Assembly: GCA_030704615.1 (NCBI GenBank)
Contig: CM060734.1
Span: 58,776,001 to 58,840,000, forward strand
Length of the DNA: 64,000 bases
Source of the DNA: Takakia lepidozioides
Lineage: Eukaryota > Plantae > Bryophyta
Direction of reading: 5' to 3'
This document shows, piece after piece, positions 10,903 to 34,736 of the stretch. A program made the position numbers and the translations under genes. Each line of letters opens with the position of its first letter. Within the stretch, counting starts at the first letter, position 1. The notes under the pieces are model-generated. The model ran no database searches and had not been told where the DNA came from. It saw only the letters and a list, made by a program, of their open reading frames with translations.

Positions 10903-11969
10903 TGCCGCAGGAGGGCATTCAATCCGCGGAATCACAGAATGGGGTGACACGCATATCATCCAGAGTGACACCAGGGTGCCACGGAAAGGAGTGTCAATCC
11001 AATCGGTGTAATTCCCACTTGGTGTCACGATGATGAAGCCCGAATATGACTAACTTAAGTATAAAATGTACTAGGATTATCTACAAACTTCCCACTTCCC
11101 AGCCAAGAAACCAATCTTGAAGCCCTTGCAGCTGAGGGGTCTGAAGTTCTGTGGTGTCTGCCATTAACATGGAAACTAGAAGGCTGCAAGTGAGCTGTTG
11201 ACTACATTTGTTGCAAAGAGTCATGGGAGATAATTTATTGCTGGTGAAAAAGATCGAGGATTTGCAGACAGGGCAAAAATGATCGACCAAAGCTTACTTG
11301 TACCATCGGTGAGTGTAGAAATGTAGAGCTCGGTCACTTGAACTGGCATGAAATATTTTAGCATATTTACCCATACTGAATTCAATTGCAGAACAAATGT
11401 TTTTTTGTACCTTGGACTACACCAAACCCTGTTTTTTTTTTTTTTTCTCCTTCGAATCAGTAAAACTCAAAATATCATTTCATTGTTTTCAAGTTTTTAT
11501 GTTATTCATGCCATATCCTCACCTTATGAAGTTCTACAAATATGGTGCCGGTCTAGTCTTTTACCATTGCTTAACCTTATGATGTTCCCCACCAAAATGT
11601 TGAATGCTAACTTGTTCTTTGTGTAATCAAGTTTCTAAGACCTTTACTTTTCTTTTTTCTTAAAAACAGGGTAGGATCTACGCATCAAGTTGGCCAAAGT
11701 GCCCTTAACCTCATATTATAGGTTGTTCCCATGAGACTTAATGGGAACATGAAGTTTTTTAGTTCCCATTTGGGCACATGTTAGGGCCGGGTTCCATGGG
11801 AATGGGGGCACCCCAAAGAAGGAATCGCCCCCAATGGAGGAACATCCCATCCGCCCCCATTGTGCAAGGCAAGCGGCCCGTGACATACTAATGACAAATT
11901 ACCAAAATTTCATCCAAATTTTTCATCTTCAAATATTTCTCTTACACTGGACGTTATCTTTTAACTTAT

Positions 11970-13309
11970 GTGTTTCTGCGAGAGTGTTTGCACGTCGCGA
12001 AAGATTCTTCGCTCTCCTCTTCTTCCCCTCGCATTGTGCTCCCTCACAACCTGATCATGGCCTTGTCAATATCTGTCTTATCAATATGGGTTATTGTGAT
12101 GCAAGCCATGCAGGACATTATCATGCCAATGGAGCTTTACGGTGGTGCTACCAATATCCATGTAGAAGAATTGACATTTGTACAGTTCTTTTCCATTTTC
12201 TCACAAATGTTTACTGCATTACAGCTTTCAAAGCATCACCATATTAGTTGTCCATGGTATATCAAACCACGTTCTGTAAAATGGTTTGCTTGGTATATTG
12301 AAGATATACCCTATTCTGATCCCTTACAATTCAAGCAATTTTTTCGTGTGAGCCCTAGTACATTACAATATATATGTGATCTTGCTAGAGAAGATTTAAG
12401 TGCATGCCCTCCTACTCCATTGGATACTTTGCCAAATAGAAAATTGTCGGTTGAGAGACAGGTGGCTATAGCTCTTAGAAGGTTTGCCACTGGGGACTTA
12501 CTTTTAGGGATCAGTGAATTATTTGGTTTGGCCAAACCGACAGTTATCCACATTATTTGGAGATTTGTGGAATCACTGAATAGAAGAGCCTAACACCACT
12601 TGACATGGCCTATTGGTCAGCGAATGGAGAAGATCAAGAAAGATTTTCAGCAGTTCCGTGGTTTACCAAATTGTTGTGGGGCACTTGATGCAACTCTTTT
12701 TCTTGTTAAATTACCCCCTGGTTGTAATTCAACTATATATAGAGATTACAAGAATGGACAAAGTATTTCAATGCAGGCAGAGATGTCGTTCATCATGGAA
12801 TAAAATTGGATGGCCCAACTGTGACACTAAGTACAGGCGACAATAGTGGGGAGTACATCATTGGTGATGCAGGATATCCAATGCTCCCATGGTTGGTGAC
12901 ACCATTTTTTGGTGCTTCGGGTCGGAAGAGAGAATTCAACTACCTTCATTCATCTACTAGAATGTGTGTAGAACATGCTTTTAAAGGAGTTTGGAGATTA
13001 TTTAATCGAATTATATTTCGCCCAAAATCAGATCGTTTGGGCTCTATGATCTAGTCGGCCTGTTTGTTACACAATATCTTGATTGATATGAAATATGTGG
13101 TTGATCCAACTCTGTATGAGCATATTATAAGAGCATATCCAAGAGGGTATGCCAGTATCCCTCCAGCTAACAGAGCATTCAGTGGAGCACACAGGGTTAG
13201 GAATGCTCTCTTCAACCATTTGCTATCACAAAAGGAGTGGGATCGCACTGCCGAAGCAAGGATTGCGGCCCAAGCTGCAAGAGCAGCTGCTAGGGAAAGG
13301 ACAAATTAG
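11970..13309 (+). pseudogene. Harbinger (DDE_Tnp_4/HARBI1-like) transposase, disrupted
   Basis: FKQFFRVS, LSVERQVAIALRRFATG, GLPNCCGALDAT, YIIGDAGYP, FNYLHSSTRMCVEHAF, LLHNILID. In-frame stops at ~12591, ~12801 and ~13052, plus internal deletions. Confidence 0.88.
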
Positions 13310-13448
13310 TGGCAGAATGTGGTACCACAATAGCATGCCACAAGTCTGGATATTGAGTCTTTGTTAACATGATCATTTTTCATTTAAGAGCTTTCCTTGT
13401 GAAGCCCAATTCATGCTATGCCTCCCATTTCTTGTCAGCTCCATGAAT

Positions 13449-14105
13449 TGTAGTGTGTGATATGTCTTTAGAAAGATAACTTCATTGCCTACCTCTGTGT
13501 TCAAGTTCCATTCAAATCCAAGATGGTGAGAAAAAACTATCTCCAAAAAGTTGAGCCCCTTCCATTTCATGTTGTTTGTATTTGGCTACATGACCTTGCT
13601 GTGCATGTTTTACTCTCATTTCTTGTCAACTCGATCAATTGTAGTGTGTGATATGTCTTAGGAAAGCTAACTTGATTTCCTACCTCTGTTTTGAAGTGTC
13701 ATTCAAATCCAAGATGGTGAGAAAAAGTTATGTCCAAAAAGCTGAGCCCCTTCCATTTCATGTTGTTTGTATTTGGCTGCATGACCTTGTTGTGCATGTT
13801 TTACTCCCATTTCTTGTCAATTCAATCAATTATAGTGTGTGATATGTCTTTGGAAAGCTAACTTCATTTTCTACCTCTATTTTCAAGTTTCATTTAAATC
13901 CAAGATGGTGAGAAAAAATATGTCCAAAAAGCTCAGCCCCTTCCATTTCATCTTTTTGTTGTGTATTTTTTACTCCCATTTCTTGTCAACTCAATCAATT
14001 GTAGTGTGTGATATGTCTTTGGAGAGCTAACTTCATTTCCTATCTCTGTTTTCAAGTTTCATTCAAATCAAAGATGGTGACAAAAAAAGGTATGTCCAAA
14101 AACCT
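13449..14105. repeat. Tandem repeat, ~190-bp unit, ~3.5 copies
   Basis: Units start t(g/a)tagtgtgtgatatgtctt at ~13449, 13640, 13831 and 14000. Confidence 0.88.
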
Positions 14106-15652
14106 GACAGCTTTAGGTGGAGGTCACCCCAAACTAGAGGCATGAACATGATACATAGTGAAGCTGCCATGAAAAAACAAAAGCAAATATAAGAGGCTCA
14201 GATTTTGGGTGATAGAATTTTCATTTCACACTCAATTTCTTTGATTCCATAACCCACAGATGGATACTTTAACTAGCTTTTTGAAGGAATATCCCACACC
14301 CCGATAGGTGGAGGTGACTGCAAACTAGAGGTATGAACATGGCACATAGTCAAGCTGCCATGAAACAAGTTAGGGCATTGAAGGGGCTCTTGTTTTGGGC
14401 CATAACCATTTGACAGCACACTAGAGTAGAATGAAACAATCAAGAGAAGTGTCTGCATGTGAAGTAGCTCTCCACAGCCATATGACATTGCCAGATTAAA
14501 GGTGTTAACAAAGAGAGGCATATGCAAATGTCATACAAGGTCAATCTGGAAAATGATTGCGCTCAAGTTGGGCTACAAGGCTAGAATATCACCTGGAATG
14601 TGAATGAAACAACACCTAAATGGTTGAGAATCACAATGTACCTTCCCAATATCTCTGCTCACGAGCAGCAGAATCCCTGGCTTCACCAACCAACGCCGAC
14701 GCCCCTCACGCTTGGGTTTCTTCCTTCGACGAACATCATTTCTTTTTCTTTCTTTCTCTTCCCTCTTCTAAACATGTCTTCTACTCTTGGATGAAATGCA
14801 GTGGCCTTCTACAGGTTGTGGGCCCCGCTCCGAGGAAACGACGAAGGTGTCAGTGTCAGTTAGGGGCGCTGCGAAAATCGATCGCCCTTTGTGAAGGGAC
14901 GGTTTTTTTGCACCCTTTCGCAAGGGGCAATTCCGTGGGGGCACCCCTTAGGAAAAATGTTATTTCCACCAATAGCGCCTCGTGAATCATGGGGGTGAAT
15001 CATGGGGGTGATTCATGGGGGGACGCTTGCTGCTGCCTGTGGAACCCGACTCACACTCATTTCTTTATTGGTACACTTGTAGAGAGAGACTTAGCAACAT
15101 GTTCAAGTCAATGGAGAAAATGTGGTCAAATGACCTTACAGGCTTAGATTGGTGTGTTGTGATGAATCATGCCTCTCACTCTCACCTTTTTCTTATAGCA
15201 AGAGAGCCCATTGCCCTTTTAGAATTATTTTTTTATTGGCCTTGAGCAGTGACCACTGAGTACATATGCAGCACGAAGTACATTATCCCGTGGGTCCCTC
15301 AGTGCTCGGCACATGCTCTTTATGTTTTTAATGTGTTCTAGTCATGGTTGAATGTCTATATATATCCATCTATTCATAGATCAGATAATATGTGTTTATA
15401 TCCCAAGTGATCGGAGGTTCCTTCCGTTCTTTATGTGTTCTTAGCAGTAGAATCATGAGGATACCAATAGCATGATATCAACCCGTATATCAATGTATCC
15501 GGATCCATTGTTTTGAATCCGGGTTAGATGCATAATTGGCGGCTATGAAAATACGCAAAAACAAATGCTATACCCGGTGTAATACCCGGCAGATATCCGG
15601 CCAATACCCGTCAGTACCTATAGTATTAGAATAATGATAGTATTTTATGATA

Positions 15653-16229: not shown

Positions 16230-17399
16230 TATCATGGATGCCTATTTGCTTTCTACAAGGTTATTTTCTTTGTTTTGTAGTTTGATTAACAAGGTTCTCT
16301 ACCAGTGTTGTACTGGTATCAGGTTGACGACATACCAGACTGGTACTGATACCAGACATGAAACAATACTCTTAACTTATATATATTTAATGGCGGATGT
16401 TTTCTTCCCAAATATTGGTATGAATATGAGTGTCATGATGTCATGACCACAAATATCAGAATGCTGCGGTAATATAGATATCAAGATAACTAACTATAAA
16501 AATAATAAAATACAAATAAAATTAATTTATACAAAATATACGAGTACTTGTGCATGTCATAAATTGATATAATACCCATACCAATGTAGATGAGGAAGAC
16601 TGTAGAGTACTGGTTGTGGCTGGTCGGAATAAACCAATATCAGCCTGGTGTCACGTATTCTCCTAAATGATACGAGACTAATCTGGTATTTGATAGCAGT
16701 GCATATACCATGCACATACGAGTCTTTCACTTATATACCACAACTCTCTATTTTTAAGAACAAAGAATAAATAATCATTAAATAATAAAAATAAAAATAA
16801 AATGCACGGATATTTTAATTGCATATATATCTTCATATTTTATTATGTCCTCAGACTTACCACCTACTTTCATACAGATTCTTTGGCCGTTTTTTAATAT
16901 CCTCCCGTTCCGGGTATTACCAACATGACAAATAGCGGATCCGGGTAGCATGTAATTAGGGCTGAGAACAAGAGGTTGGGTAGCATGTGAACAGGGCCTA
17001 AGTGTCTGTCACGCCTTGTTTAAAAAGGATTGAGATTTAAGTTATTGCTCTCTCGGCGCGAATTCAGGCCATATAACTTATCCTAAGGAGTTTTCAGGAT
17101 CAACCGACAGGGAGAACCGGCAGCCAGTTACATGCTAGCCGACTGAATTCCAGAATTTCCGAATGAAATATGAAACCTCAGGAAATGGATCCGAGGGAAA
17201 AAATGGCCGAAGCGAAAATCAATCGGGTGCATGTCTGCTTGCAGTCGCTGCCTACTATCACAGCTCACCTGTCCACGCAGGTTCATATTCTTGGCCTCTA
17301 TGTGGTTTGAAGGCATTGACAGGTCCACCTTCTATAATTCTTCACTTGTTTGAATTGCTTAAAACTGGTTGTGATTATTATTATTATTATTATTTACTT

Positions 17400-17576
17400 T
17401 GTCGTGTGCATACATATCGCTACACAACTACATCGCTGTCCAAAACCACACAACACATGTGCACGCCACACACTAGTATATCACTAGTCCACCACCAATC
17501 CAGCCACTAGTCCAACCATTAGGCTACAACTAGTCAGTCACTAGGCTGCCCACTATGGCAGTCATTAGTCCACACA
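17400..17576 (-). repeat. Terminal repeat A (outer copy)
   Basis: TGTCGTG...CCACACA; direct repeat of 17907-18082 with small indels. Confidence 0.9.
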
Positions 17577-17577
17577 A

Positions 17578-17904
17578 TGATAAAGAAGAAGAATACAAGC
17601 ACAAGCTCATGCGAGCTCACAAAGCTGAAGCATAAACTCATGCATATATAACCTCATCACTCAAATACAAGTCAAGCCAAGTGCACCCCACGCCATGGGG
17701 AATCCACACTACGGCGCCATAGCTAGGCGCGGTAAGGCTCAACTCGAGAAAGATGAGCCTCCCGCGCTTGTCGTGAAGATAACCACTCCAGGGCCTAAAT
17801 TTGTCTTGACCCCTGGATTGACACTTGGGCCAATCCCAAATGTCAATATGTAAAAGCTAGCTATTTCCTAGCTAGTTTCACACTAGTGATAAAATAACTT
17901 GACA
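17578..17904 (-). repeat. Repeat B (3' copy, 327 bp)
   Basis: TGATAAAG...CTTGACA; about 9 mismatches versus 33117-33443 by eye. Confidence 0.95.
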
Positions 17905-17906
17905 GC

Positions 17907-18082
17907 TATCGTGCGCATACATATCGCTACACAATTACATCGCTGTCTAAAACCACACAACACATGTGCACGCCACACACTAGTATACCACTAGTCCACC
18001 ACTAGTCCAACCACTAGGCTACAACTAGTCAGTCACTAGTCTGCCACTATGTTGCCTACTATGGCAGTCACTAGTCCACACA
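17907..18082 (-). repeat. Repeat A' (inner copy, next to the PPT)
   Basis: Copy of 17400-17576. On the minus strand it follows AGGGGGGGCA-AT. Confidence 0.9.
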
Positions 18083-18343
18083 ATTGCCCCCCCTAACTGG
18101 TGCTTAGGTCCCTCTAAGTCCAGGTAGCCACAAGATGTGATAGTGACCATAGCCTCACTAAGTCCTCCACCATTGTCCCTACCACACTCAAACTCGATAG
18201 ATCAAGAAGCCGGGTGCAAGAGTTGCCCCATCGTTAGTTGCCGTCTTGCAACCTGTGAACTTGAGCCTGGGATCTCGTGTATTGACTCCTATGAGCTTGG
18301 CCTCCTATGTCTTGTTAGCTGCCTCTAGTCATGTCCACTGCCA

Positions 18344-19600
18344 CTATCCCAAGCAGTGTGGACATAACCAATCTCCATCAAGAACCCTCTCAAGAGGTGG
18401 TGTCAAGCATCCCATATGCCAACCTCTTGAGCATCGATCACACACCAGCATGGTGGCTGCCCCTTTGGCAGACCCACAGAGCATGCACCTCAAACCTGCA
18501 GGTACCACTGCCAAGTTTGGGTCAACTCTGCCATCGACATTGGGAAGGTGACATGACGCACAATTACGCACATGGTCTTTCCAAGTCATGCCATCCCGAC
18601 CCTCCAAGATCAGGACTCCTGAGGGCAACACCTCTCAAACCCTCAGAATAACACGCCCTGCAGTGATATCCAGGGTCGTAGGAGCAGTCTGCTGCAAATA
18701 AACATAGTCACCAGGGCTAAACCTCCGAACCCCAGGACGATATCCTCCACCATGTATAGTGGCATACCTCAACGTATCACGGTGTTGTGCAATGGCAAGG
18801 TTCTCAAAAGCCGTGGGCATGACTTTCTTGAACAACTCTGCACGCTCATCGCATGCACGTACCTACACGTCCGGATCGTCAAGGTTAAGGACTTGAGCAG
18901 TGTCCCTACGAATGGCTGCAGGCAAATCTGGCTCTCGGCCAAAGAAAAGGAAATACGGTGAGAAGGAGGCAAGTGATGTTTGTTTGCTGAACTTGTAGCC
19001 CATGGCTAACCAAGGCATCTGAAGATCCCAATCTCCTAGGTGTCCTTTCTGTGAGCCATACTTGCGCAACCCCCTCTTCACCATCTGAACAACTCTCTCT
19101 GCCAAGCCATCGGCCTCAGGATGATCCCGAGAAGTGGTACGGTGGTCTATCAAGGCTTTATCACACAAAGCCTGAAACTCCCCCAAAAACTCTCTCCCTT
19201 GGTCTGTGAGTACCTCAGCTGGAGCACCGAATCGGCTAAGCACACGATCCAAGAATGTATACGCAGCCCCCTCACTAGCCTTGTCAGGCAATGGAACCAA
19301 CTCAATCCACTTGGAGAAGTGCTCCACTATCACCAACACATATCTGTGGTGACGCATAGTCAGTGGCAACGGTCCTGCGAAGTCAAGACTCCACCTGTAG
19401 TCCAATCCCATGATTGGTAAAGGATACAACTGTGGTGTAGGGGCGTTGAATAAAGCACGCACCCTGTCACACACCATGTACCTAGCCACGAACTGTTGCA
19501 CCTCTGTATGCATACCACGCCACCAATACTACCCCTGCAGTAAACTGTGAGTGCGTCGCACTCCAAAGTGCCCCAACTCCTCATGGGCATGCCGCACTAA
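18344..19600 (-). pseudogene. Integrase (HHCC + DDE core) with C-terminal PHD finger
   Basis: HEELGHFG...MVCD, WSLDFAGP, VLTDQGREF, GLAERVV, then CMLC...MLVCDRC..GWHMGC...GDWLCPHC (C4HC3). In-frame stops at ~19529, ~18863 and ~18635. Confidence 0.93.
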
Positions 19601-19909
19601 CCATGCACGCTGTGTGGGTTGAGGCAAAATCCTTACCCAACCATCCTCCCATACTTGGAGCAGGTGTATCCCCTCCCACTTGAACCTCTTGGCTCGTTGC
19701 AGGATCCGATCCCTCTCCTTGGCAGTTGCAATGGCTGCCGTGTCTCCAGTACGGAGGTAGTCCAACACAGCCGAATCCTCATGTATATCTTGGGTACCAC
19801 CTGGCTCATCACTAGCCTCAGGGTCCTCAGACACTCCGTCTACAGTCATCCCTGTTGTAGGTCCAACCTAACTTCCCGATGCCAAGATATACAAAAAAGC
19901 AGATGCATG

Positions 19910-21330
19910 TCATCCCGACACCATCTCCTCGTCCGTCTCACCATGCCACCGAGCTCCAGTGTCATCATGCTGGCTCGTGCATGGATTGCGACTAAATCCA
20001 TCTGCATCCTGATTGATCAAACCCGGTCGATGCACAACCTGAAAGTCATACTCCTGGAGTATGAGTGCCCACCGTGCAAGCTTCCCCGTAAGCTTGTTTG
20101 ACTCCATCAACCACTTGAGTGGCTGGTGATCCGTGACAAGGGTGAAGAGATTGTCGTATAGATAGCACCTGAAGTGTGCCACGGCCCACACTGCAGCTAA
20201 GCAGTCTCCCTCATATGAGCTGTACTTAGCCTCTGCAGTGTTGTTCGAGTGGCTAGCATAAGCCACTACGAACTCTCTTCCCTCATCATCCACCTGTGTG
20301 AGCACCGCTCCAAGCCCCAGCATGCTCCAATCCGTATGCAGCTGAAAGGGACGCCCCCTGATAGGTCGTCTCAGGATTTGCGCCGAGGTCAACCTCGCCT
20401 TGAGCTCTTGAAAAGCTCATTCCTGCTCATCTTCCCACTGCTTGGTCAACTTGGTTAGAGCCTTTGCAATGGCACTAAATCCCTTGACAAACCGTCTATA
20501 ATAGTTTGCCAACCCCATGAAAGCTCGAACTCAGCTCACATCCGTGGGGCGTGGAATTTGTGCAATGGCCTCTACCTTAGTCTACTGTACCCCCAATCCT
20601 CCAGGATATATCATGTGACCCAGATACTCAATCTAGTTGTGGAAAAACTTGCACTTCCCCGGATGCAACTTCAATTTGTACGCCTCAAGCGCTCCAATAC
20701 CACCTGAAGGTGTCTCTCATGCTCATCCACTGTAGCACTAAAAATGATGATGTCATCTATGTAGCACCGAGCAAAGTCCACCCCTGCTAGAATCCTATCC
20801 ATGACTCTCTGAAACTCTGCAGGAGCATTCTTAAGCCCAAATGGTAAGAACCGCCACTGATATAGGCAATCCTTGCCGTGCTCATTGATCCCCCAGAATG
20901 TCGTCTTCTGTTTGTCCGCCTCCTTGATCAACAACTGGTGATATCTGGATCGTAAATCCAAAGTGCTAAAGACCTCAACATGCCCGATGGCATCAAAGAT
21001 CTCATCTGGTGTTGGCATAGCATACTTATCGGACTTGGTCTGACGATTTACAGGCCGGTACTGCACATACGTCTCTCCATCCAATTGCCATAGACATCCT
21101 TCTTGGCTGGCATCACTGTGGCTGAAGCATACTCTCCACCAGAGAGCTCCACCAAACCAGCCTCCTAGAGATCTTGAGTCCTCATCTGAATCAAAGACCT
21201 CTCCATGTCACTGTATCTATAGGGTCTCCGAAAGATTTGCGTGTCAGTGGCCAACTCAATACGAATCTCTTGACCCTTCAGTGCTCCCAAGTCCTTCAAA
21301 CTGAAGGCAAAGCAATTCTGGTAAGCCCTC
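19910..21330 (-). pseudogene. Reverse transcriptase and RNase H (Ty3/Gypsy)
   Basis: FSTLDLRSRYHQ, LPFGLKNAPAEFQR, CYIDDIIIFS; RNase H FQLHTDWS..GLGAVL, FTLVTDHQPL, ADGFSR. Confidence 0.95.
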
Positions 21331-21759
21331 AGGAACCGCCGTATACGTCGTCTCTCTCCTCCGGTGACAATGGGTCCAATGTCAGGCTCCCAATTGTCCT
21401 TCGTAACTGCAACCTTAAGTCCAGTGGGCTTAGAGGTAGAGGATGCGTCCAGTGGTTGCTATGTTGCAACCTCTTGAGCGGTACTTCCTGCCTGCTCAAT
21501 CAATGACAAGGCCTCATCCTGCCCCATCATCTCATCCTCGAGGACTTCCTCAACCCGAGAAAAATCCCCAACCTCATCCATCACCGCCGCCCTGGCTGTT
21601 AACTCCCTCTGAACCTCGAGCACCTCCCACGTGTGCCATGGATGCCTGCACCTAGTGGTCCTCTCATACTCACCCCCACTCACTGCCTGTACCGTCTCAG
21701 TAGGCAGATAGACCATCAAGGGAAGTGTACTCCGCACTCTGCGTTGCTTAGCCATAGCC

Positions 21760-22732
21760 AAGCTGATAATCCAGGTCAAGCAATTGAGATCCATTGCTTG
21801 CCCCAACACCTAACGACGTGATGCCTTAGAAAGAGACGGCACCGCCGTGGTACCAGTGGTAAAACCCATTGCCCGCTCACGCTCGTCAGCATTAGGCTCC
21901 ACTAACTGCTGCAACTGAGCATCCCACAGGAGGCCAAGTCCACTATCCCGGAAAGCATGCGATCCTGGGAAGCTGAGCAGTGTAGGTAATGCTGCTCGTG
22001 GTTGACCCACCTTGTTGACCACTGCCAAAGACGAACGGTCATCGTGTCTCACACGCTGAGACTGCCTCCCTGTGTCCAAAATGCTATCCACTGTGAGGTG
22101 TGCTGGCCGCTGCACCCCATCAAATGTACGCTTGAGCAGTGCGGGTGACATCAAGTTAGTCCACCATAGCCGTGGACGATGAGCCCGTGACCCCACTGTA
22201 CTGCTAACAACACTGCTGATCCAAGCCACGATCGGACTTGATGCACACTGGCCATCACCCTGGCCCGAGAATCGCCCATCAGTGGCACTTTCTCCAAGAT
22301 GTATACTGAAGATACAGCTTGATGAAGCTGCAACTGGCGCAAAACCCGCACCATCTCCCAAAACAGACCCGACCTCGAGTCTCGTAATCCATTGCCATGC
22401 CCGGCTGATGAATGCCCTTGGCAAGGCCAACTTGCCACTACCAGATCAATGGAGCCAACCCGCTCCAATCCTGCGCCCCCAGCAACGAAATGTCTGTTGG
22501 CAAGGCCTGCTGATATCCACGAACTGCAGACACTGGCAACAACTCAGGGTACTGCTGCACCAACTGAGCAACATGGTGAAGTGAAACGCGTCGTGCAGTC
22601 TTATCCCTCTCCACATACAGGTAACGCCAAACTCGTACACCTGCCTGTAACACAGCAGTCAATCCGGTGCTGATCCCGCCAAACAAGTCCAGAAGACAAA
22701 TGCCTTCATCCGGATACTGCCACAAAATAGGT
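21760..22732 (-). pseudogene. C5-cytosine DNA methyltransferase domain (DNMT3-like) within pol
   Basis: Motif I LDLFGGISTG, II VERD, III TDI, IV SWPCQGHS, V RSGLF, VI ILEKV (canonical ENV), VIII AHRPRLWWTN, IX ERERAMGF..GTT, X LGQAMD. Two frameshifts (~22465, ~22200) and a TAG at 21810. Confidence 0.92.
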
Positions 22733-22735
22733 ATG

Positions 22736-25700
22736 CACTACAACAGATTGCGGCTTTTACGACTCCCATGGGTGCGCAGTCATGACAGATATGTGGCAGA
22801 AATACCATTTGCAGTCGTAAAATGCTTTTGAAGTCATAATGCAGGTCTGGGGAAGGCGTATATGCGACTGCATGGCTCCAGACTCTGCGGAACACATATC
22901 AAACATGTTTGACCACGAATATTGGCATGGCAGATATGACTACCAGTCACGGTCATGGCTACACTAGAATGACGTGTGTATATTGCTAGAAAGACATATG
23001 ACTTCATGATTCTCACTCTAATGCATTCTGCCAGATCATCACGTGGATGAATCACTACATGACTGCACATGTCAACACATGCTTTTCTGGTTATATATAT
23101 AATATATGAGTATCTATATTTTGAAAAAACAGAGACTCTGACCACTAGAATCAATTTTTTTTATAAAAAAATGCAATTTAAAAAAAAAAAAAAAAAACAC
23201 ATCGGCTGGTAAGTGCACAGTGTGTGTCCCTGGTGGTTTGGGGTTCAAACCCTGCCTTATCCCGTGTGTGGGATTGTTCGTGACAGTATGTCTGGGCGTT
23301 GATCGTCCTGTACGTCTTATGGCCCATAAATGAAGGCGGGTGAAATTTCCCCCCCTCCTCAAGGACCTGGTTTCCTTTAAGAAAAAAAAAAAAAAGAAAA
23401 AAAATCAAAGAGGGGCTTTTAGGGTTTACAAAAAGGTTAAAAAACTTAAAAAGTTGTCCATCACGGTAGCGTGAACAGACTTAGAGCGAGCGGGAGGGAG
23501 AGAGAGAGAGGGTTGGGACTTAGAGCGAGCGAGCGGGAGAGAGGGCAAACATGCATGGGAGGCCCGCAGTTGGATCAACCTTCGCATTTGGAGCAAGCAA
23601 CCCTAGAAACGCTACGGTATGTGTACGAGGAGGTTTCGGCTGGGAGCCCGCCGTTCTTGGGAGAGTCAGCTTCATCTTAGCAGGCCGTGTTTCAATCTCT
23701 ACCCGCTCGGCCCTGATTTTACAGCACGGAGCAGAGCTGGCATGAGTTTCTAAAAGATCCTTCACGATGGTGGGACAACCGCAATCGCAAGGTGTGGCTT
23801 TTTCTTAATGTACGATGTGAAGAAGTTTGTCCATCCTGCAAATGTGGGTTGTTGGCTCCTGTTAGTACCATGATTTGGTATTCTTCCTGATGTTTACAAG
23901 GTTCTTGGGAGAGTTAGCTTGGTCTTAGCAGGCCGTGTTTCAATCTCTGCCCACTCAGCTACACCGTGGTGGTTCTCACTGACCAATCCGACATTACCTG
24001 ACTACAGAAAACAAGCAGCACACTGAAGAGGTCCTCTTGGGTTCATGGTCAGTCAAATCCTCCATGGGCCATGACACAAGGTCGAGGACAATGTGGTGAG
24101 GGCACCTTCTTCTTCGACCTATTTCAGCCTGTTTTGTCCTCTCATCAACTCGGCCCTTCATTTGCAGCACGGAGCAGAGTTGGCATGAGATTTTTAAAGA
24201 TCCTTCACGATGGTGCGACAACCGCAATGGCAAGGTGTGGCTTTTCCTTAATGTACGATGTGAAGAAGTTTGTCCATCCTGCAAATGTGGGCTGTTGGCT
24301 CCTGTTAGTACCATGATTTGGTATTCTTCCTGATGTTTCAAGGTTCTTGGGAGAGTCAGCTTGGTCTTAGCAGGCCGTGTTTCAATCTCTGCCTGCTCAT
24401 CTGCACCGTGCTGGTTCTCACAGACCAATCCGACATTACCTGACTACAAGACACAAGCAGCACACACAAGAGGTCCTTTTGGGTTGATGGTCGGTCAAAT
24501 CCTCTATGGGTACTTCTTCGACCTATTTCAGCCTGTTTTGCCCTCTCATCAGACTCGGCCTTGAGATGCATATTGAATTATGTAAGTTAGCTCGTTGCTC
24601 ATTGATAAGTAGGGTTGGGGGTGTTTGCTGGAATGATTGTTGTATGCATGATTTGTGCAGAGGCATAGATAGCTGAAGGAGCAGGGATAGAGTGTGGAGA
24701 GGGCCAGATTTCAAGCTCCAGATTATCTATGATTCCCTGTGGAAGGATAGATACAAGAAACCTGCATGGGTAGATGGTCAATTGGAAGCCGCAGCAGCAG
24801 CAGCACAATTGATACAATCAAGCACTGCTAATGAAGGCACCTTCTGAAACACATTTCACCCTATTTTCCCCTCTTATCAGAATCGGCCTAAATTTTCATT
24901 TCAATTCTGCAAGTTAGCTGGTTGAGTGAATCTAGTTGGAGTGACTTTGACATGATACTGCCAATGTGACAAGAGTATGCATTGAACCCATTGGTAGCGG
25001 GATATTGGGATATCTCTTGGCCATGTGCCATCGTCAAAGCTGAAACTGTACTAGTTGTCATTCTGACCACTGCCCTAGTGGACATGTATGCCAAATGTGG
25101 GTGCAGCAAGCCTGATGCAAAGGGAGAGTTCGACAACATGGCTAAATGAGATGTGGGTTGTGGACTGCCATGATTGTAAGGTGTGTGTAGCATAGGTGTG
25201 GGAGTAAGGCTTTGGAAACCTAAGAACAAATGATGTGGGAAATGATGAAGCCAAACCAGGTCATGTTCATTTGTGTTTGTTAATATGCATATGCGAGCCT
25301 AGCAGCCCTGGGAAGGGGCCAAGAGGTTCATGGTGACATCATCAAAGCTGGAATTGTACCTGATGTCATTCTGAACATTCCCCTGGTGTACATGTATGTC
25401 AAATGCGAGCTGGTAGCCCTGGAAAGGACGCAAAGGTCCATTATCAATCTGGAATTGTACCACTAGATGTCACTCTAAACACTGCCTTGGTGGATATGTA
25501 TGTCAATGCACGCCTGGCAGCCCTGAAAAAGGGTACAGAGGTCCACGGTGATATTGTCAAAGCTGGTGGTATTGTATTTGATGTGATTCTGAACGTTGCC
25601 GTAGTGACCATGTATGCCAAGGTTGCAGGGTGCAACTACAAGGATACATGGTTGTTTTGATAATATGGCTAAATGAGATGTGGTACCAGCCTAGCCCATA

Positions 25701-27648
25701 ATTGCACTTACCTAGAGTAGGCAATGAGTGAAGACGGGGTTTGTGATGTTGATCGTCCAAGCTGGAATTAAACAAATGTTGTTCTGAACTATGCCCTTGT
25801 GGACTTGTATGCCAAATTGGGGTGCATGGAGGATGATGATCCCAGGATATGCACAACAGCGGCACGGGATGGAGGCCCTTTGGAGAGGTCTATGAGCAAG
25901 TGGTGTGGGAAGGGATACTGCAGCGCAACCACATCGCGTTTGTTACATTTGCAACATGTGTGCAAGCCTGGCAGCCCTGCAAAATAGCAAAGAGGTTCGT
26001 GGTGGAATTGTACTAGATGTCGATCTGAACTTTGACATGATGCCAATGTGACAACAGGAAAGTATCCAGAAACAGGTCACAGAGACGAGGAGAAGTTGTG
26101 GGAATGGTGGGACAACCGAGGGAAAAAGGTTAATGCCTGTTAGATTATAGAGGGCAGACGCAATTCAGCATAGGAACTAGTGTGATAAGCTGAGTTGGGT
26201 GTTTCCTAGAACAAATGTAGGCTGTCATTATCAGCTGCAAGGCAAGGAAGTATGCATGATTTGTGTAGAAGCAGTGATAGCTGAAAGAGCAGGGATAGAG
26301 TATGGGTCCAGATTCATCCAAGAGGGCCAGATTTCAAGCATGATTACCTATGATTACCTGTGGATTTAGCTATAAGAAACCTGCATGGGTAGATGGTGAA
26401 CTGGAAGCCGCAGGAGTAGCGGCACAATTGATAAAATCAAGCACTGCTAAAAAGGCACCTTCTTCAACACATTTCACCCTGTTTTTCCCTCTTATCAGAA
26501 CCGGCCCTAAATTTCAATGTCTGCAAGTTAGCTGGTTGAGTGAATCTAGTTTGGAGTGACTTTGACATGATATTGCCAATGTGACAACAGGAAAGTATCG
26601 AAAAACAGTTAACGGAGATGAGGGGAAGCTGTGGAATGAATACTTTTCTGACCCCAGTCAATGGTGGGACAACCGAGGCAAAAAGGTAAATGCCTGTTGG
26701 ATTACAGAGAGTAACAGATGCAATTGAGAATAGGAACTTGTGTGGTAAGTTGAGTTGGGTGTTTGTTGGAACAAATGTAGGCTGTCATTGTCAGCTGCTA
26801 ACAGCAATGCAAGGATATATGCATGATCTATGCAGAGGCATGGATAGCTGAAGGAGCAGGGATAGAGTGTGGGTCCAGATCATCCAAGAAAGCCGGATTT
26901 CAAGCTCCAGATTACCGATGATTCCCTGTGGAAGGATAGCTACAAGAAACCTGCATGGGTAGATGGTCATGGGTAGATGGTAGATAGTTTGGAGTGACTT
27001 TGATATGATACTGCCAAAGTGACAATAAAAAAGTATCCATAAACAGGTAACAGTAGCAGATGCAATTCAGCACAGGCACTAAGGCAAACTCTCCTTCCCC
27101 GTAAGGATGTGTTTTGGTATCTGAGCGAATAAATATTTTATCTAAGAATATAATTTCAAAAATTCGTTATTTAATAATGTGCCACTGTCCCATGTTGGTC
27201 AATAATAATAATTATAATAACAAATAATAATTATTATTATTTTAGTAATTATAATAACAATAAAGTAAATCTACAACCCCCAACAGCGACGCGTGTCAAT
27301 TGACATGAGGAACCACGTGTCAAAATCACGATGCGACACATGCTGACGTCTGATTCCCTCCTCTGCAGTCGGATGACGTCGCAGTCTGACACGTGGCGTG
27401 TTCTGTAGAGAGCACGTGTCTCTATTACACAACGGCTGACATGGACCCATTCAGTCATTCAGTAATGCCAGTGTATGACTACCCCCACAGCTGCTAGCGC
27501 CACGTGACAGCCAGCTTGGAGAGTCATATCTGCCATGTCACAACTGACTAGGTCTTTACGTCTGCAGAGTCAGGAAGTCGTAAATGGCTTCCATGACTGC
27601 ATTTGCAGTCATAACACAGAGACGTAAAAGCCGCAATTTGTTGTAGTG
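22736..27648. mobile_element. Non-autonomous CACTA (EnSpm) transposon carrying gene fragments (Pack-CACTA)
   Basis: TIR CACTACAACAGATTGCGGCTTTTACG / CGTAAAAGCCGCAATTTGTTGTAGTG (1 mismatch in 26). 3-bp TSD ATG at 22733-22735 and 27649-27651. Subterminal GCAGTC/GACTGC motifs. No transposase. Confidence 0.95.
25020..26030 (+). pseudogene. Captured, scrambled PLS-class PPR gene fragments
   Basis: Repeated ALVDMYAKCG, GKEVHGDIIKAGIVPDVILN and VTLNTALVDMY segments with stops and frameshifts. Confidence 0.85.
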
Positions 27649-27968
27649 ATGGTATCCAATGGTGACAACTGAGGTGGTTCTGGTGCAATCCCCGCACTCT
27701 CCTCCTCTCTTGATGGTACAAAAGCCTCCACCCAGATTTGTTGTACCCGTCGATCAGCAACCCGCTGCAAATCCTTGCTCGTGCCCCACAATAGAGTCTG
27801 AGCAACCATGACAGGCAACTCCGCCATACCATACATGTCATCCTGCTCTCCTGGAGGTGTGTCATCCTCTGAATGAGCGTTGCCCTCTAGCAACTTTCTA
27901 GGCCAAGTCACTGCAGCTGTGAATGCTGCTAGTGTCGGCATCTTGCCCCGCTGGGCAACCGCAACTCC

Positions 27969-28350
27969 TCATATGAATGTCACAGGGAGCTGCACACGCC
28001 GGTCCTCCCCTGATTGCCATCCAGGCCTATAGGAAGCTGACTCCTCCCAAAAATCTAGGGTGAAGCCCATGGGGTACAATACTGCCCCACCAACCAGGAT
28101 ATCGTACGAGACCGCGTCTGTCACAATGGCCTTGGCTCGCATCGTTGAGCCATCTGTAGGGTGATCCAGCCGTAGTCTGATAGCAAACTCACGCCGTGTC
28201 ATGCCCCGAGCCTGCTCCGATCCTCCCAGAGACGTATGTATCTAGAAAGGATAAGGCTCCATATCCGCCTTCGTGAGGCCCTAGCTTGCAATAGCAGCTC
28301 TGCCCAGCATCAATGGCTGAGCTCCCGAGTCCAACAAGACCTGCAGTGGC
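27969..28350 (-). pseudogene. Retrotransposon aspartic protease
   Basis: VLLDSGAQ active site and downstream YDILVG. Stops at ~28281 and ~28242. Confidence 0.85.
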
Positions 28351-29228
28351 CGGTACCTCTTGCCTGATGATCCACTCAAACAGAAAATGCCATCCTGGTT
28401 GTCTAACATGACAACTCCATGTGTCACCATGGCGCGCTCAATGGCTGGCATAGCTGGCAGCTCCATCAACCTGGCAGCTGCAGCTTGCCATGGTGCCGCC
28501 GTGGCAGTCTTGACCCTCAAATCCGAGGATCCCTCCGGCATTACACCTCTCACTATCTCCGCAGAAAATGAAGTAACCTTCCCACTCTCACAGAGTGTAG
28601 CTGCCAGCCTGAACACCTCAGCTGGTCTTACCCCCGGCGTCGCAATCATGGTAGCCGAGAACAATGGAGCCTGACACACATATGTGGTCGCCCCCAACAG
28701 CACACTAGCTACCGTAGCCTTGGCAGCAGGTAGTAGCTGCCCGTGTGGCTCTCCCTAATGGCATAGTAATCTCCGCCTCAATAGCAATCGGGCGAAAATT
28801 AGGTACCATGGATGGCGTCGACACTGTCTCCGCCAATGTGAATAATTGAGGTAGCCTAGCCTGACGGCATGCCTCCCCACGCTATGGATCCAACTCCACC
28901 TCCGCACCTCATGGCTCAGGAACTCGTGCTGCACCTCGTGGCTCATGAACTCGTGCTGTTCCTCGAGTCACGGCTGCAACAGACTCCACCTGCACTAGTG
29001 GTAGTGTTGCTCCGCACATGAATCCCATGCCTCCCATATCTTCTCCTCAGGAGCAGGAGACCATGGCCCCCCTTACCACCTGAGCTGTAGCCATGGTAGC
29101 GAGCCTCTGCTCTAGCTGCTGAAGCCGGTTGGCCATGCCTTGGTCAACACCCTAACCTCCACGTCCTTGGCCATGTTGAGCTTGCCCTTGGCCTGCACCT
29201 CATGCCTGGCCACCTCGTCCTCTCTGGG

Positions 29229-29879
29229 CTACCCTACCTCGCCCCCAACCACCATTGTTCCCTTGGAACTGGCCTGGGCGCAACTCAGGATGCAAACCAT
29301 AATACTGGGCCTCTCCATGCCCGTGCTTGCCACAATGCCCACACTGCAACTGTGCAGGCTGTGCATATGCCGGCCCTTTGCCTCCCTCTGGGCAATCCTT
29401 CTTGACATGGGGTCCTCACACATGTCCAACACACCACCTCTGCCCGTTGTTGGCCTGCAAATGAAGGAAGAGACCTCTGCATCTGAGGTCCTCTCTGTCC
29501 TTCCCTGGGCTTCACCTGGGGCCCCTTGTTGTCCTTGAGCACGTTGAGGTAGTGGTTGGCTAGGAGCACCACTACCCCGTGGTGTCTCCTTAGCAAATCC
29601 CACCATGACCACTCGTTTCTCCACCATGTTGAGCTCTATCTGCTCTACCAGCAAAAACATATTTGCTAAAGTGGGATGGGCCGCTTGTAGGAGAGTTGCA
29701 TCCCGCACCCTTCTCCTCAGCTCCTTGTCCAATATCCCATACCAAAATTGGACTGCCTGAGCTTCTGTAACCCCTTGGGTTACATTTATCAAGCGCCTCA
29801 TGCGAGTGAAAGCCTCCCTCAAGCTCTCAGTAGGCCTCCGTTGGAACTCTTGCAAGCTCCGCAACTTCTCTGTCCTCAC
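29229..29879 (-). pseudogene. Gag (capsid-like region and frameshifted CCHC knuckles)
   Basis: LQEFQRRPTESLREAFTRMRRL...AVQFWYGILDKELRRRV; degenerate knuckle-like CWTC and HCGKHGH segments in shifted frames at ~29320-29435. Confidence 0.75.
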
Positions 29880-31239
29880 CCTTGGTAGTTCCCTCTCAAC
29901 TCTTTGAAGAACTCACAACAGGGTTGAAGGCAGGCACGGGTACTGGTGCTGGTGCGGTAGTGGCTTGGGTGAATGTCATAGCTACGGTACCACCTGTCCC
30001 ACTGCTGCTTGCTGAAGTTGCCGGTGCAACGACAGGTGTAGCCATTGCCCTCGTGACTCTAGTGCCCCTAGTGATGGAGACATAGTCGGGTGACCAGTAC
30101 ATCCTCCACTCCTCGATCTCAACCTCATGCCCCGCCTAAACTCATGGTAATCATCCATAGGGGGCCCTCAAGGTGCTAAAACAGCCCCTTCCATGCCATG
30201 AAAGGCGTAAATAGTTGTGGATTGCGCATTTGCTGCAAATCACACCAACTATCAAACTCTTGGATAAAATCATCCAACCGATGGTGCCCACCGCCCCAGA
30301 GTACCTTCGTGGCCCCTTGGTAGCTCCATACATCTCCTCCATTGTGTCCCACAACAATGGCAAGGAAACAACTTGCACCGCCGGTGTGAGTCCTCCTGAT
30401 TCACAATCCGAATCAGAACCTTCCGTTAAAGACACAGGAGGTGAAGGTGGCCTAAACCGCACACCTCGTCTCGTGTACCCACTAGTATCACTAGTGCTCG
30501 AACCGGCACTGTTCCTAGCAATTAGTGGCACCTCCGTGTTGACAAACTATCACTCAACCGGTCATGAACATGTCCCTAATCCCCTATCCACAAGGTACCG
30601 GGTAGAGAACCTGTTGCGGCTTATGGTTTGGAATACTAGGTTCCTAACATAGCCTACACCTGCACCTGCATCCACCGCAAGCACTCCTATGGTTGGCTGG
30701 TAATCACCTCCAACCTCACCACAGGAGAAACAATGATGGTCTGACTGGTCATCACCCCAGCCTCACCATCGACAACATGCTCTAGGACTGGCCGGTGATC
30801 AAATCCGGACCAATCACCTATAAAAACAAGCGCCTACACAAAACGAACATAGCGCACAGTCAAACATGCAGGTATGGAGGGGATCCAAACACAAGAAATC
30901 AGAACGACAACTCCCCCACACTAAAAACAACTCCACGGTGTTGCTCCTGCAATGACACCCCAGCCCAAACCCGGACTGACTCTTGCCTCCACCTACGGAA
31001 AGGTCTTGGCCTAATGAGAGGGTGAAAAACTACGATGAAGAGAAACTAAAGCCATGCCTAACCCCAGCATGCCCTCATCCCAACACTCTTCCTCTCCTCT
31101 CTTCTCTCACACTGCATGACCATGGGAATATCATGAAGATACTCCTCAAACCGCCCTCCACGAGCTTCAAAATTTGGCCTTCAAGACCACATGTTAGTCC
31201 TCAAGCAGTCTACCAGTGCCTCCCCGAGTCAGCACATGC

Positions 31240-31575
31240 CGTCCACAGGTCAACACACACCACAAACCAACACAGGCCCACACAGATCACTGGTCACAGC
31301 CGTCACAGCCCCACACAGGCCACAGCCCCACAGCCCATCACAGCCCCAAAGGCCATAGGTCACAACCTGTCACAGCTCTACACAGGTCACAGGGTCACAG
31401 CCACAGGCCACAGCCTGTCACAGCCCCCTCACAGCCCATCACACTGTCACAGCCTACACAAGTCACAGGGGTCACAGCCCCAAAGGCCACAGCCTGTCAC
31501 AGCCCCTCACAGCCCCACAGGCCACAGGGCACAACCCATCATAGCCCGTCACAGCCCCACAAGCCATAGGGCACA
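31240..31575. repeat. Degenerate (CACAGCC/CACAGG)n minisatellite in the retroelement 5' leader
   Basis: Dozens of cacag motifs in irregular tandem. Confidence 0.85.
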
Positions 31576-32059
31576 CTCATGGCCACTCATGGCAGTTTAG
31601 CCATTTCTCCAAGGGGTTTAGCCACGCCAAGCTAGGGTTTGTGTCTCTTGGGCTCTAGGCTTCTTTGCACCGAGCTATGGCGGCTGTGAGGAAATCAACA
31701 AGGTATTCTTGCTCTTTATGGCCCCACACACCACCAATAGTAGCTCTAATTCCAAGGAAGATGTTTGCAACCGAAACTAAGTGCACAAGCTTCCTTTTTT
31801 AACTCACAAAACAGCGTCATTGATCCCTATGGCGACTAACCAAAAATGACTGACTTCCAGCCCTTGTAGGCACTCATTCATCTGCTTTTCTTGACCATAG
31901 CATGCCCTTCGCACCTAATCCAGCCCCTGCACCTGTTGCTTCAAGAGTTGTGCTCCCTTCAATTTTGAAGCTTGAAGTTGAAACCCCAACTCACATAGGC
32001 CCTACAAGTGCTTTTATTTCACCCCAAGTGGAAACCAGCCCTAGCCCTTCCGTTCTAGC

Positions 32060-32440
32060 TCTCTAAAGCTTGAAAATAAGAGCCTCAATGGGCTGAAGGC
32101 ATGCTCCACACATGCCCCACTCTCACCATAAGAGAATCAGCTCCTTTGCTTCATTTCTTACACCCACAAACTTGAAAATACAAGCTTCAGCGGGCTGAAA
32201 GCATGCTCCACACATGCCCTACAGGGAAACCAGCCCCTTTCTTTCTTTCTTGCACTCCCAAACCTGAAAGTACAAGCCTTCAACAGGCTGAAAGCATGCT
32301 CCACACATGCATTGCCCTCACATAAGGGAAGTCAACCTTTCCCTCTTCCTTGCTTGCCCTCCAAGCTTGAAGATGGAAGCTTCAATGAGCTGAATACATG
32401 CTCCACACATGCAACCTCTTCACACAAGAGGTATCAGCCC
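32060..32440. repeat. ~100-bp tandem repeat, 4 copies, in the retroelement 5' leader
   Basis: gctgaa...catgctccacacatgc recurs at ~32093, 32194, 32287 and 32389. Confidence 0.8.
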
Positions 32441-33116
32441 CCTATCTTGGCTCCTTGGCTCTTTGATGCTCTCTAAGACAAGACTAAGCACTCCATAGCC
32501 TTTGAAACCCTAAGGCTTATATTTCCAGCCACAAGACACTCCTCTTGTGGTGCAAGAGCTCTTCTTCCAAGCTCTGAAACCCTAGGTGCACATTCCATGG
32601 CCTTGCCGCACCTCTTAGCTCCTGTTCCAGCCCTGCTCTTGCCATGACAAGAGCCCTCTCAATGCTGAAGCTCGAGATTGAAACCCAATCTCAACATACT
32701 CCACAAAGTGCACTGATTTGCCCCAAGCCAAATCAGTCCTTTCGCTTGGTCTTGCAATCCTTCACACAATGAAAGCTCGCATTCCCAAGTCCAGTTCTCA
32801 GCTTTGCCACCAAAGCCACTATAACCTGCTCTTGACTGGTCCTCTTCCCAATCGTGCTTGCTCATGCATGTACACAATTTGAAACCATCAAGGTGCTCTG
32901 GAATTACCTGCAGCATGGTGCTTTCATCTCTGAAGCTGAAGATCGAATGCCAAGGTCTACCACCTCGTAATCCACATCGCCTCCGCTTCTAACAACCAAG
33001 GGCTCAACGGTACTCCTTGCATAACAACTTGGTTTCTCTCATCCTCAAGCAAAAACCACAAGTGCTACAACTAACTCGTATCTGGCACTCACAGATACGA
33101 GCTCATCTTTCTCGAG

Positions 33117-33443
33117 TGATAAAGAAGAAGAATACAAGCACAAGCTCATGCGAGCTCACAAAGCTGAAGCATAAACTCATGCATATATAATCTCATCACT
33201 CAAATACAAGTCAAGCCAAGTGCACCCCACGCCATGGGGAATCCATACTACGGCGCCATAGCTAGGCGCGGTGAGGCTCAACTCGAGAAAGATGAGCCTC
33301 CCGCGCTTGCCGTGAAGATAACCACTCCAAGGCCTAAATCTGCCTTTACCCCTGGATTGACACTTGGGCCAATCCCAAATGTCAATATGTAAAAGCTAGC
33401 TATTTCCTAGCTAGTTTCACACTAGTGGTAAAATAACTTGACA
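33117..33443 (-). repeat. Repeat B (5' terminal copy, 327 bp)
   Basis: Same length as and ~97% identical to 17578-17904. Confidence 0.95.
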
Positions 33444-34736
33444 ACTTATTGTTGTGCATTTTACACTTGTGTTGTCAACATGTTGATATTTATAAGGGCC
33501 GGATTTATAGCTGAACACAAAATAAATCAATAGGAATATTACCGGTTGTAAAAAAATTATCTCGGAAATTGACCGGGTATAGTTACCACTAAGAGGCAGC
33601 AACCGACTGCCCAACCCACTTAGCCAATTGCTGTTGGGAATGAGCGGGCTACTGGCTGGTTCAACTGAAATTATTTCTCGGACGTTGTTCAGGATTGACG
33701 TGATCCTGTCTTCCGCAGGAGAAGCTGCATCAAGGAAGCATATTGCAATCAAGTTTAATGTCTAAGGCACAAAGATGGGTATATTTTCTCCTTTTCTTTT
33801 TCTTTTTCTTTTTCTTTTTCTAAAGGGAATGTTTATTTATTTAGGAACAGGGGCGAAGGCCCTGGCAGAATTTTATTAAGAGAATGTATATACAAAGGTG
33901 AATAACAACTGCATTCTACAATATTGCTCCCTGCATCCCAGAATTTATGTTCTCATGAAAACTGAAAAATCAGAAAGAAACAAGTTCATCCAACAGCTCA
34001 ATGTTTGTCGCCTTTACCTGTGGACTTGGCCAACAAAATTACATCCATCAATTTGCCATACGGGTGAATGGCTCCGTGAAAAGTTCCGCCTGGGACAAGG
34101 CCAATAAATAGTTAAAAAGTTAAAACTTCATACGTCTCTATGGATGAGTACACTTGTGAATAAACTCAACATGGATGATAACCAACAGGCGCACCACATC
34201 ACGCCACGTGTCGGACGATTTTTCTTACCTTGCGTGTAAGGTAATTTCATGGAAATCGTACAGACTAAAAAAGGGGCAATGACGACGCTGCTTGCCAAAG
34301 TCAAAGACGACGTGAATTGTATTCTCCAGGCCGAGTTGGTGTGGTAAATGGACGGTAATTATTCCGGCTGCGGGCCACCGATTAGCCCCGTAATTTCCCG
34401 TACGACACCGTCCACGCTGTAAATGTACGATGGTTCATTATGCCGCGTGGCTAGATCGAGGCGGTTGGATACTAACCAGGGGCTGGAGTGTAACCGGGGT
34501 TAGGAAGCGCAGTAACCGCCATGGCCTTCGCCGAGCGCAGTATAAAGCCCCACTGCTTCCTAGCTCCCCGTTTTTCTGCTTCCCACATTTCGCTTTTCTC
34601 GCGCACTGTAGTTCACATCTCACGCTCCGTCTTTCAAGCTTCCTCGCGATCTCTTTCTTTAATATTGTTGCCGAGTTTTATAACGATTGCTTAGTTCTGC
34701 AGTGTTGCTTTCTTATTAATCAGCTGGTTTTTCTCT

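Follow-up and report, generated by a model that had tools for sequence, protein, structure and literature searches.

Gypsy retrotransposons with a cytosine methyltransferase in Pol are already known from Klebsormidium: De Mendoza et al. (2018) described KnitGypsy-Dnmt3 of Klebsormidium nitens, with DIRS-like repeats (PMC5890265, in the parts of that text that deal with it), and why retrotransposons carry such enzymes has been a question since then, partly for want of a tractable host. In the passages that concern such elements, later papers mention streptophyte elements only (PMC12344493; 10.64898/2026.05.21.726589), and Gypsy-7a_cRei of Chlamydomonas, for which an excerpt of PMC9940879 records a PHD and 'LTR subparts', is at most a candidate for the same structure. 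On the host side, the methylome paper on Marchantia polymorpha lists, in the section on methyltransferases, five enzymes, element-borne ones not among them (PMC5784723). No published account of bryophyte members, of their end structure or of their integration route was found in a literature taken without most subscription journals and Repbase reports.

In this work we analysed 64,000 nucleotides of the moss Takakia lepidozioides (the window). One Ty3/Gypsy element in it is a decayed member of a bryophyte family that has a conserved DNMT3-like methyltransferase and a PHD finger in Pol. Our joint account, in which we place reasonable confidence, is that this is a decayed bryophyte Gypsy element whose integrase likely cuts an internal palindrome and not the cDNA ends, and whose methyltransferase likely methylates the new DNA.

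Organization and decay of the window element

The element occupies 16.0 kb, or about 11.1 kb without a CACTA insertion, and has the following parts:

17400..33443, minus strand: whole Ty3/Gypsy element, with TG..CA ends; in sister contigs repeat A breaks off at the identical base, and the flanks are mixed
29230..30342, minus strand: gag region, broken (tblastn to Marchantia proteins; Retrotrans_gag only weak, E 0.036)
27649..28750, minus strand: aspartic protease (motif LLDSGAQ near 28331) plus linker, sharing the frame of the methyltransferase on the far side of the insertion
22736..27648, no strand: CACTA transposon in pol (terminal inverted repeats, 3-bp duplication ATG, PPR-like fragments)
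21750..22735, minus strand: DNMT3-like C5 cytosine methyltransferase domain, broken (Pfam, alignment to relatives, PDB and fold matches)
20674..21207, minus strand: reverse transcriptase (RVT_1, E 1.4e-20)
19913..20416, minus strand: RNase H (RT_RNaseH, E 6.7e-35)
18640..19620, minus strand: DDE integrase and zinc-binding domain (rve, E 9e-14; Integrase_H2C2; D, D and E found)
18350..18490, minus strand: C-terminal PHD finger (PF00628, E 3.5e-11)

The gag-PR-RT-RH-IN order with a DDE integrase, the TG..CA ends, the target duplication, the PBS (primer-binding site) and PPT (polypurine tract) are those of a Ty3/Gypsy element. Two complete terminal LTRs are not present, as the repeats are split (A ... 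B-j-A-B). No tyrosine recombinase was matched in the ORFs scanned of the window, where an rve integrase is present instead, and the C-terminal chromodomain, a chromovirus/Tcn1 trait, is absent, with the PHD finger in its place. The reverse transcriptase groups apart from the chromovirus of the same window in an RT tree. The aspartic protease of this copy gave no Pfam protease match. The best PDB matches of the PHD finger are CHD4, KDM5B/A, ATXR5, DPF3, PHF12 and PHF21A, and it also resembles the AIRE and UHRF1 fingers; the fingers of CHD4, KDM5, PHF21A, AIRE and UHRF1 we take to be readers of unmodified H3.

The preliminary description, made from the letters alone, had placed the methyltransferase between protease and reverse transcriptase in a dead copy residing in a land-plant-type genome, and it was right on these three points. 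The domain does lie there, not adjacent to the protease in this copy, where the 4.9-kb CACTA insertion parts the two and splits the pol frame. Sister copies lack the insertion and their methyltransferase runs straight into the protease side; a 5,009-bp contig of run X14 extends from integrase to DNMT at ~91% identity and then on into the protease side. The copy is dead, with frameshifts near 22466 and near 22190-22205, a TAG at 21810-21812 and EKV (ENV in relatives) in the methyltransferase, and many stops elsewhere in gag and pol. The host is attested by a lipase exon in the window, which is 81-83% identical to Sphagnum, its best match, against 74% for Ceratodon, 62-68% for liverworts and 59-67% for vascular plants; judged from this one exon, the host would be a moss near Sphagnum.

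The CACTA element itself, in which no transposase match was seen, is a Pack-type gene-capturing element: it holds several PPR-like fragments, 72-84% like an E/E+ PPR fragment at 62.8-64 kb, and repeated WWDNR..PDFK pieces, which presumably resemble organellar ssDNA-binding proteins. Elsewhere in the window are host genes for an exostosin GT47 (2472-4428), an alpha/beta-hydrolase lipase (34.7-38.4 kb) and an acyl-ACP thioesterase (40.0-41.6 kb), a DDE_Tnp_4 remnant, presumably Harbinger-like (11895-13054), followed by a 191-nt tandem repeat (13422-14163), and, at 51.4-61.8 kb, two inverted chromodomain Gypsy copies that are 86-96% complementary over several kb and have a CpG observed/expected ratio of 0.85, far above the rest of the window.

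The methyltransferase domain

The methyltransferase motifs follow one another on the minus strand in three frames, from 22735 to ~21750 (six-frame translation):

22683-22675, minus strand: FGG
22426-22418, minus strand: PCQ
22294-22286, minus strand: E[K]V (motif VI), ENV in relatives
from 22187, minus strand: RAHRPR
21884-21864, minus strand: ERERAMG
21806-21792, minus strand: LGQAM

The motifs of a C5 methyltransferase had been reported in canonical order, free of the DRM permutation, and this linear order is confirmed, all motifs being on one strand. The proposed search with PF00145 was also positive: one of the three frame pieces, the middle one, matches with E 6.5e-10 (39 bits, for a cut-off of 22), and the other two, which have no Pfam match, align with intact relatives at 58-89%. 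The affinity with DNMT3 suggested at the outset is upheld both by the ranking of PDB chains from sequence and by a fold search. Whether the query is an intact relative from Calypogeia or a profile of 25 sequences, DNMT3A, DNMT3B/C and DRM come first, then bacterial enzymes and DNMT2, with DNMT1 absent from the 52 and 54 PDB hits; in the ranking with 54 hits DNMT3A has 3e-20, DRM 1e-12 and bacterial enzymes 3e-6. For an AlphaFold model of another relative (P0007, pTM 0.77) the Foldseek rows listed from ranks 1-48 are DNMT3 in 32 of 32. These rankings by sequence and fold, as distinct from a tree with host plant DNMT3, support the placement of the domain in the DNMT3 family, with DRM, DNMT1/CMT, DNMT2 and bacterial enzymes all more distant.

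The catalytic residues, broken in the window copy, are intact in the family. Eighty metagenome loci were examined, mostly gag-PR-DNMT-RT-RH-IN-PHD as far as each reaches, with a median identity of 82% to a named Sphagnum protein (69 loci). The catalytic cysteine is kept in 70 of the 71 loci that cover it and ENV in 66 of 74, and the C, E, N and both R residues are invariant in 16 divergent members. An analysis of dN/dS, which the preliminary description had called for, indicates purifying selection on the domain. Between the window and the 80 loci, pN is 0.21 for DNMT at a saturated pS of 0.75, compared with 0.15 for RT, 0.12 for RH, 0.13 for IN, 0.23 for gag and 0.30 for PR. Among loci at pS 0.15-0.3, dN/dS is 0.49 for DNMT and 0.34 for RT, so that DNMT is somewhat less constrained; these values come from pairs that are not independent, with columns below 40% local identity dropped and synonymous sites saturated between subfamilies. 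Taken with the sister copies and the named relatives (below), this selection makes the methyltransferase a fixed trait of the family.

On balance, we lean towards an enzyme that would methylate the cDNA or the new insertion. The CpG observed/expected ratio is uninformative in this respect: at 0.44-0.60 the element equals nearby host DNA (0.47), although it is below the neighbouring chromovirus (0.85), and thus bears no specific sign of self-methylation. That CpG loss does not exceed the host level, and that selection is somewhat relaxed relative to RT, would also fit a protein with the same integration route (below) but with a DNMT that is non-catalytic, as a binding or structural module, or that acts on host chromatin, and the Klebsormidium domain, in its only published test, was without activity in yeast, an outcome called inconclusive there (PMC5890265). 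We nevertheless consider this alternative unlikely, if the better of the two that survive, because the Cys, Glu-Asn and both Arg are invariant across divergent members and nearly so in the 80 loci, and because related DNMT3 domains carried by DIRS elements perform de novo CG methylation (PMC5890265, same part).

Terminal repeats and a proposed route of integration

The repeats of the window element follow the order A1 - coding - B1 - j - A2 - B2, and the palindrome GACAGCTGTC (junction j) sits between repeats B and A. The ends and priming signals are, from the 5' side of the element:

33444..33447, no strand: target-site duplication, right copy, ACTT, 4 bp
33117..33443, minus strand: repeat A1, 5' end, with 9 differences from A2 in 327 nt
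33282..33297, minus strand: predicted self-primer (presumed RNA 5' end), 16/16 nt complementary to the PBS
33101..33116, minus strand: predicted PBS, directly after A1; same sequence in sister contigs (loose ends at 17578)
18087..18094, minus strand: PPT, directly before B1
17907..18084, minus strand: repeat B1 (repeat comparison)
17901..17910, no strand: junction j, palindrome GACA-GC-TGTC, one base changed here, full palindrome in sister copies
17578..17904, minus strand: repeat A2 (repeat comparison)
17400..17577, minus strand: repeat B2, 3' end; at the A2/B2 joint the PBS-side end of A abuts the PPT-side start of B
17396..17399, no strand: target-site duplication, left copy, ACTT, 4 bp

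The same split-repeat layout is found in loci L027, L051, L055 and L073, and the 4-bp target duplication is perfect in 7 of the 8 two-ended copies, the window included (3 of 4 positions in the eighth). Repeat j-A follows PPT-B1 in 10 of 14 informative 3' ends; the other four lack j-A-B (A-coding-B form), one of them, L032, having both ends and a duplication, and this form may stem from earlier cutting or from B-B recombination. Of 10 distinct copies, 8 have a precise A/B joint; L027 has a 19-nt insert there and L036/L038 retain 9 nt of the PBS. Such imprecision is expected of a joint made afresh. The reversed form, A-B-j-A-coding-B, was met in none of 17 distinct 5' ends. Junction j is exact in 4 of the 80 loci, each time at the B/A position, and is altered by C-to-T decay in other loci; this decay, with 10 changes spread over 3 of its 4 CHG cytosines among 9 copies, agrees with the CHG background (change rate 0.29), and we set aside a special methylation of j. 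The distant locus L079 (38% identity, other domain order) has the same 10-bp palindrome ~590 bp after the PHD, followed by a 339-nt A-like stretch that ends in a 12-bp complement pair. From its sequence and position, junction j is likely the integrase attachment site.

Repeat A terminates exactly at the PBS and B begins exactly at the PPT. The 16 nt that follow A1 are exactly reverse-complementary to a segment of A lying 181 nt upstream, and the RNA predicted for this region folds with a z of -9.0. The Sphagnum-like subfamily, whose repeat A does not align with that of the window by blastn, carries a different, equally spaced complementary pair: it matches at 16/16, in a sequence unlike that of the window, in L044 and L052/L055, and at 11-16/16 in 11 of 17 distinct loci (not recovered in the other 6). 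In L055 the fold has a less extreme z of -2.7, and in L079 it falls short of significance (z -1.8). This complementary pair is a signature of Tf1-type self-priming, a mechanism the element would presumably use. In the Sphagnum-like subfamily (L055:1830-1860 and related loci) we also observed that the PBS start recurs immediately upstream of the self-primer, which is not the case in the subfamily of the window; this second copy could form a short hairpin with the self-primer.

We propose the following route. The RNA would start inside A and, as its complementarity indicates, prime itself in a Tf1-like manner on the site that immediately follows A. Plus-strand synthesis would begin at the PPT before B, and since the PBS follows A and the PPT precedes B, the LTR would be B-j-A and the product of reverse transcription [B-j-A]-coding-[B-j-A]. 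The integrase would then cut the left j after each CA, and the two processed ends would insert with a 4-bp stagger; the element ends and the 4-bp duplications are the parts of this step that are directly seen. Retroviral integrases can cut palindromic LTR-LTR junctions, as parts of two reports describe (PMC1905944, PMC1180852). Finally, the two RT-made ends would be joined, before or after insertion, to give the observed A-coding-B-j-A/B structure; host end-joining does act on retrotransposon DNA in Drosophila, according to a portion of 10.1101/2022.09.25.509424. Packaged together with Pol, the DNMT would methylate the cytosines of the cDNA or of the newly inserted copy. The PHD finger may recognize histone H3 tails that are unmodified, a role that the ADD domain has in animal DNMT3.

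The lack of reversed forms in 17 distinct 5' ends means that a model of internal cutting needs an added timing argument, and the left j is probably chosen because it is finished, double-stranded, first. Random cutting of a free 2-LTR circle is disfavoured, as it would also yield A-B-j-A-coding-B. The same lack of reversed forms, together with the 8 precise joints out of 10, fits another explanation, in which a full-length RNA serves as template for the entire A-B-A-B set of repeats in a DIRS/PAT-like manner, the B/A junction templating both ends and the integrase processing ordinary ends; this gives only the observed form, and split-direct-repeat DIRS elements have their repeats in the same order (PMC5890265, in the parts on DIRS). 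However, it leaves unexplained why the self-primer and the PPT lie exactly at the end of A and the start of B and are kept there across unalignable repeats, as well as the joint with retained PBS sequence in L036/L038, and we regard it as rather improbable, slightly more so than a non-catalytic or host-acting DNMT. Returning to internal cutting, we favour by a little the broader view of an old and large Ty3/Gypsy lineage, from algae to bryophytes, in which attachment has moved to a palindrome in the LTR, internal cleavage and end-joining have become obligatory, and DNMT3 and PHD form a self-contained methylation kit. A bolder form, in which marking of one palindrome copy by the DNMT confines the integrase to the other, in the way of restriction-modification, is highly speculative.

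Relatives of the element and comparison with known systems

With the C-terminal half as query, 81 proteins were recovered; those with a name, at 48-71% identity, come from Calypogeia fissa, Marchantia polymorpha, Riccia sorocarpa and Sphagnum. Closterium members came from a profile search and from cluster look-ups, which gave a taxon name for 1 of 20 proteins, and an HMM search gave 462 cluster representatives at E<=1e-30. Klebsormidium sequences were not among the protein matches, a profile search aimed at named algal members having given 5 proteins. No relative was found in the viral contigs searched, and the phage-type methyltransferases in them are weak matches (26-51% over short stretches) that we set aside. 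Among 224 proteins, the DNMT lies before RT in 38, after RT or RH in 65, directly before the integrase in 22, and is alone or unplaced in 99. In a quick tree the window element clusters with bryophyte proteins (17 rows, 100%) within the DNMT-before-RT class, to which the Closterium members also belong in the DNMT tree; a second class, in which the DNMT sits between RNase H and integrase (P0062, P0204, L079 and others), makes up one side of a 99% branch in the DNMT and the RT tree alike. These trees are quick searches with SH-aLRT only, with 35 and 22 randomly kept rows of class II and 3 outgroups in the RT tree, and carry no claim on root or donor.

Sister copies, whose content the preliminary description had proposed as a test, do contain the methyltransferase: in the 57,331 contigs of run X1, cover of the DNMT is no less even than that of RT and integrase, the depths serving for evenness of cover only and not as copy number. 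A neutral one-off capture of a host DNMT3 fragment by the window copy or a small clade, with which the broken state of this copy and the presence of a DNMT3 in mosses (PMC6453930, in part) would agree, is refuted by this even cover and by the purifying selection on the domain, and is also at odds with the named relatives in four bryophyte genera and Closterium and with the sorting of the same two architecture classes by DNMT and RT trees.

Two further observations concern the relatives. The element DNMTs of Sphagnum and Marchantia (P0012 and P0017) are 73% identical, compared with 56% for the host lipase between these genera, and the DNMT of the window, from a moss, branches outside the Sphagnum-plus-liverwort group in the tree; this points to either horizontal transfer among bryophytes or paralogous subfamilies of long standing. 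In addition, most Marchantia gene models (P0008, P0009, P0014, P0017, P0022, P0058, P0067) run gag-protease-DNMT and stop before RT, and are either truncated models or a subfamily that expresses DNMT without RT.

Marchantia polymorpha is a genetic model, and relatives with intact catalytic motifs exist there as unnamed gene models. The end structure points to a second way of integration for LTR retrotransposons, which is specific and testable, and it bears on the long debate over junction cleavage by integrase, seen either as a genuine step or as a side reaction. Since the element does not end in an LTR pair, LTR-pair finders would probably miss or mislabel the family, abundant as it is in the host genome of the window.

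The present element is thus a land-plant branch of DNMT-carrying Gypsy elements, with an end structure and a probable integration route that are apparently undescribed. It resembles KnitGypsy-Dnmt3 in being a Gypsy element with an intronless, non-permuted Dnmt3 inside Pol, purifying selection and DIRS-like repeats (PMC5890265, parts 1-5 of 7), and differs in coming from a moss, with relatives in Sphagnum, liverworts and Closterium; the domain order of KnitGypsy stands outside this comparison, and those five parts of its description are without target duplications, priming sites, a junction palindrome or a replication model. With split-direct-repeat DIRS elements, including SymbioDIRS-Dnmt3, it shares the A-coding-B-A-B order and a Dnmt3 in Pol, whereas DIRS elements have a tyrosine recombinase and the present element a DDE integrase, TG..CA ends and 4-bp duplications (PMC5890265, same parts). 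As in Tf1/Sushi and plant Tcn1 elements, the PBS directly follows the 5' repeat and is complementary to a site upstream in the same repeat, with no tRNA site; those elements, however, have two full LTRs, cDNA-end integration and mostly a chromodomain, in place of which the present element has a PHD, a DNMT and probable internal attachment sites (PMC4600332, PMC6317226, in the sections on these elements). Lastly, in foamy virus and in HIV-1 2-LTR circles the integrase cuts a palindromic CA..TG junction to give processed ends (PMC1180852, PMC1905944, in part), but there, according to the same parts, the palindrome arises only upon ligation of the cDNA ends, while in the present element it is hard-coded inside the repeat, away from the ends defined by reverse transcription.
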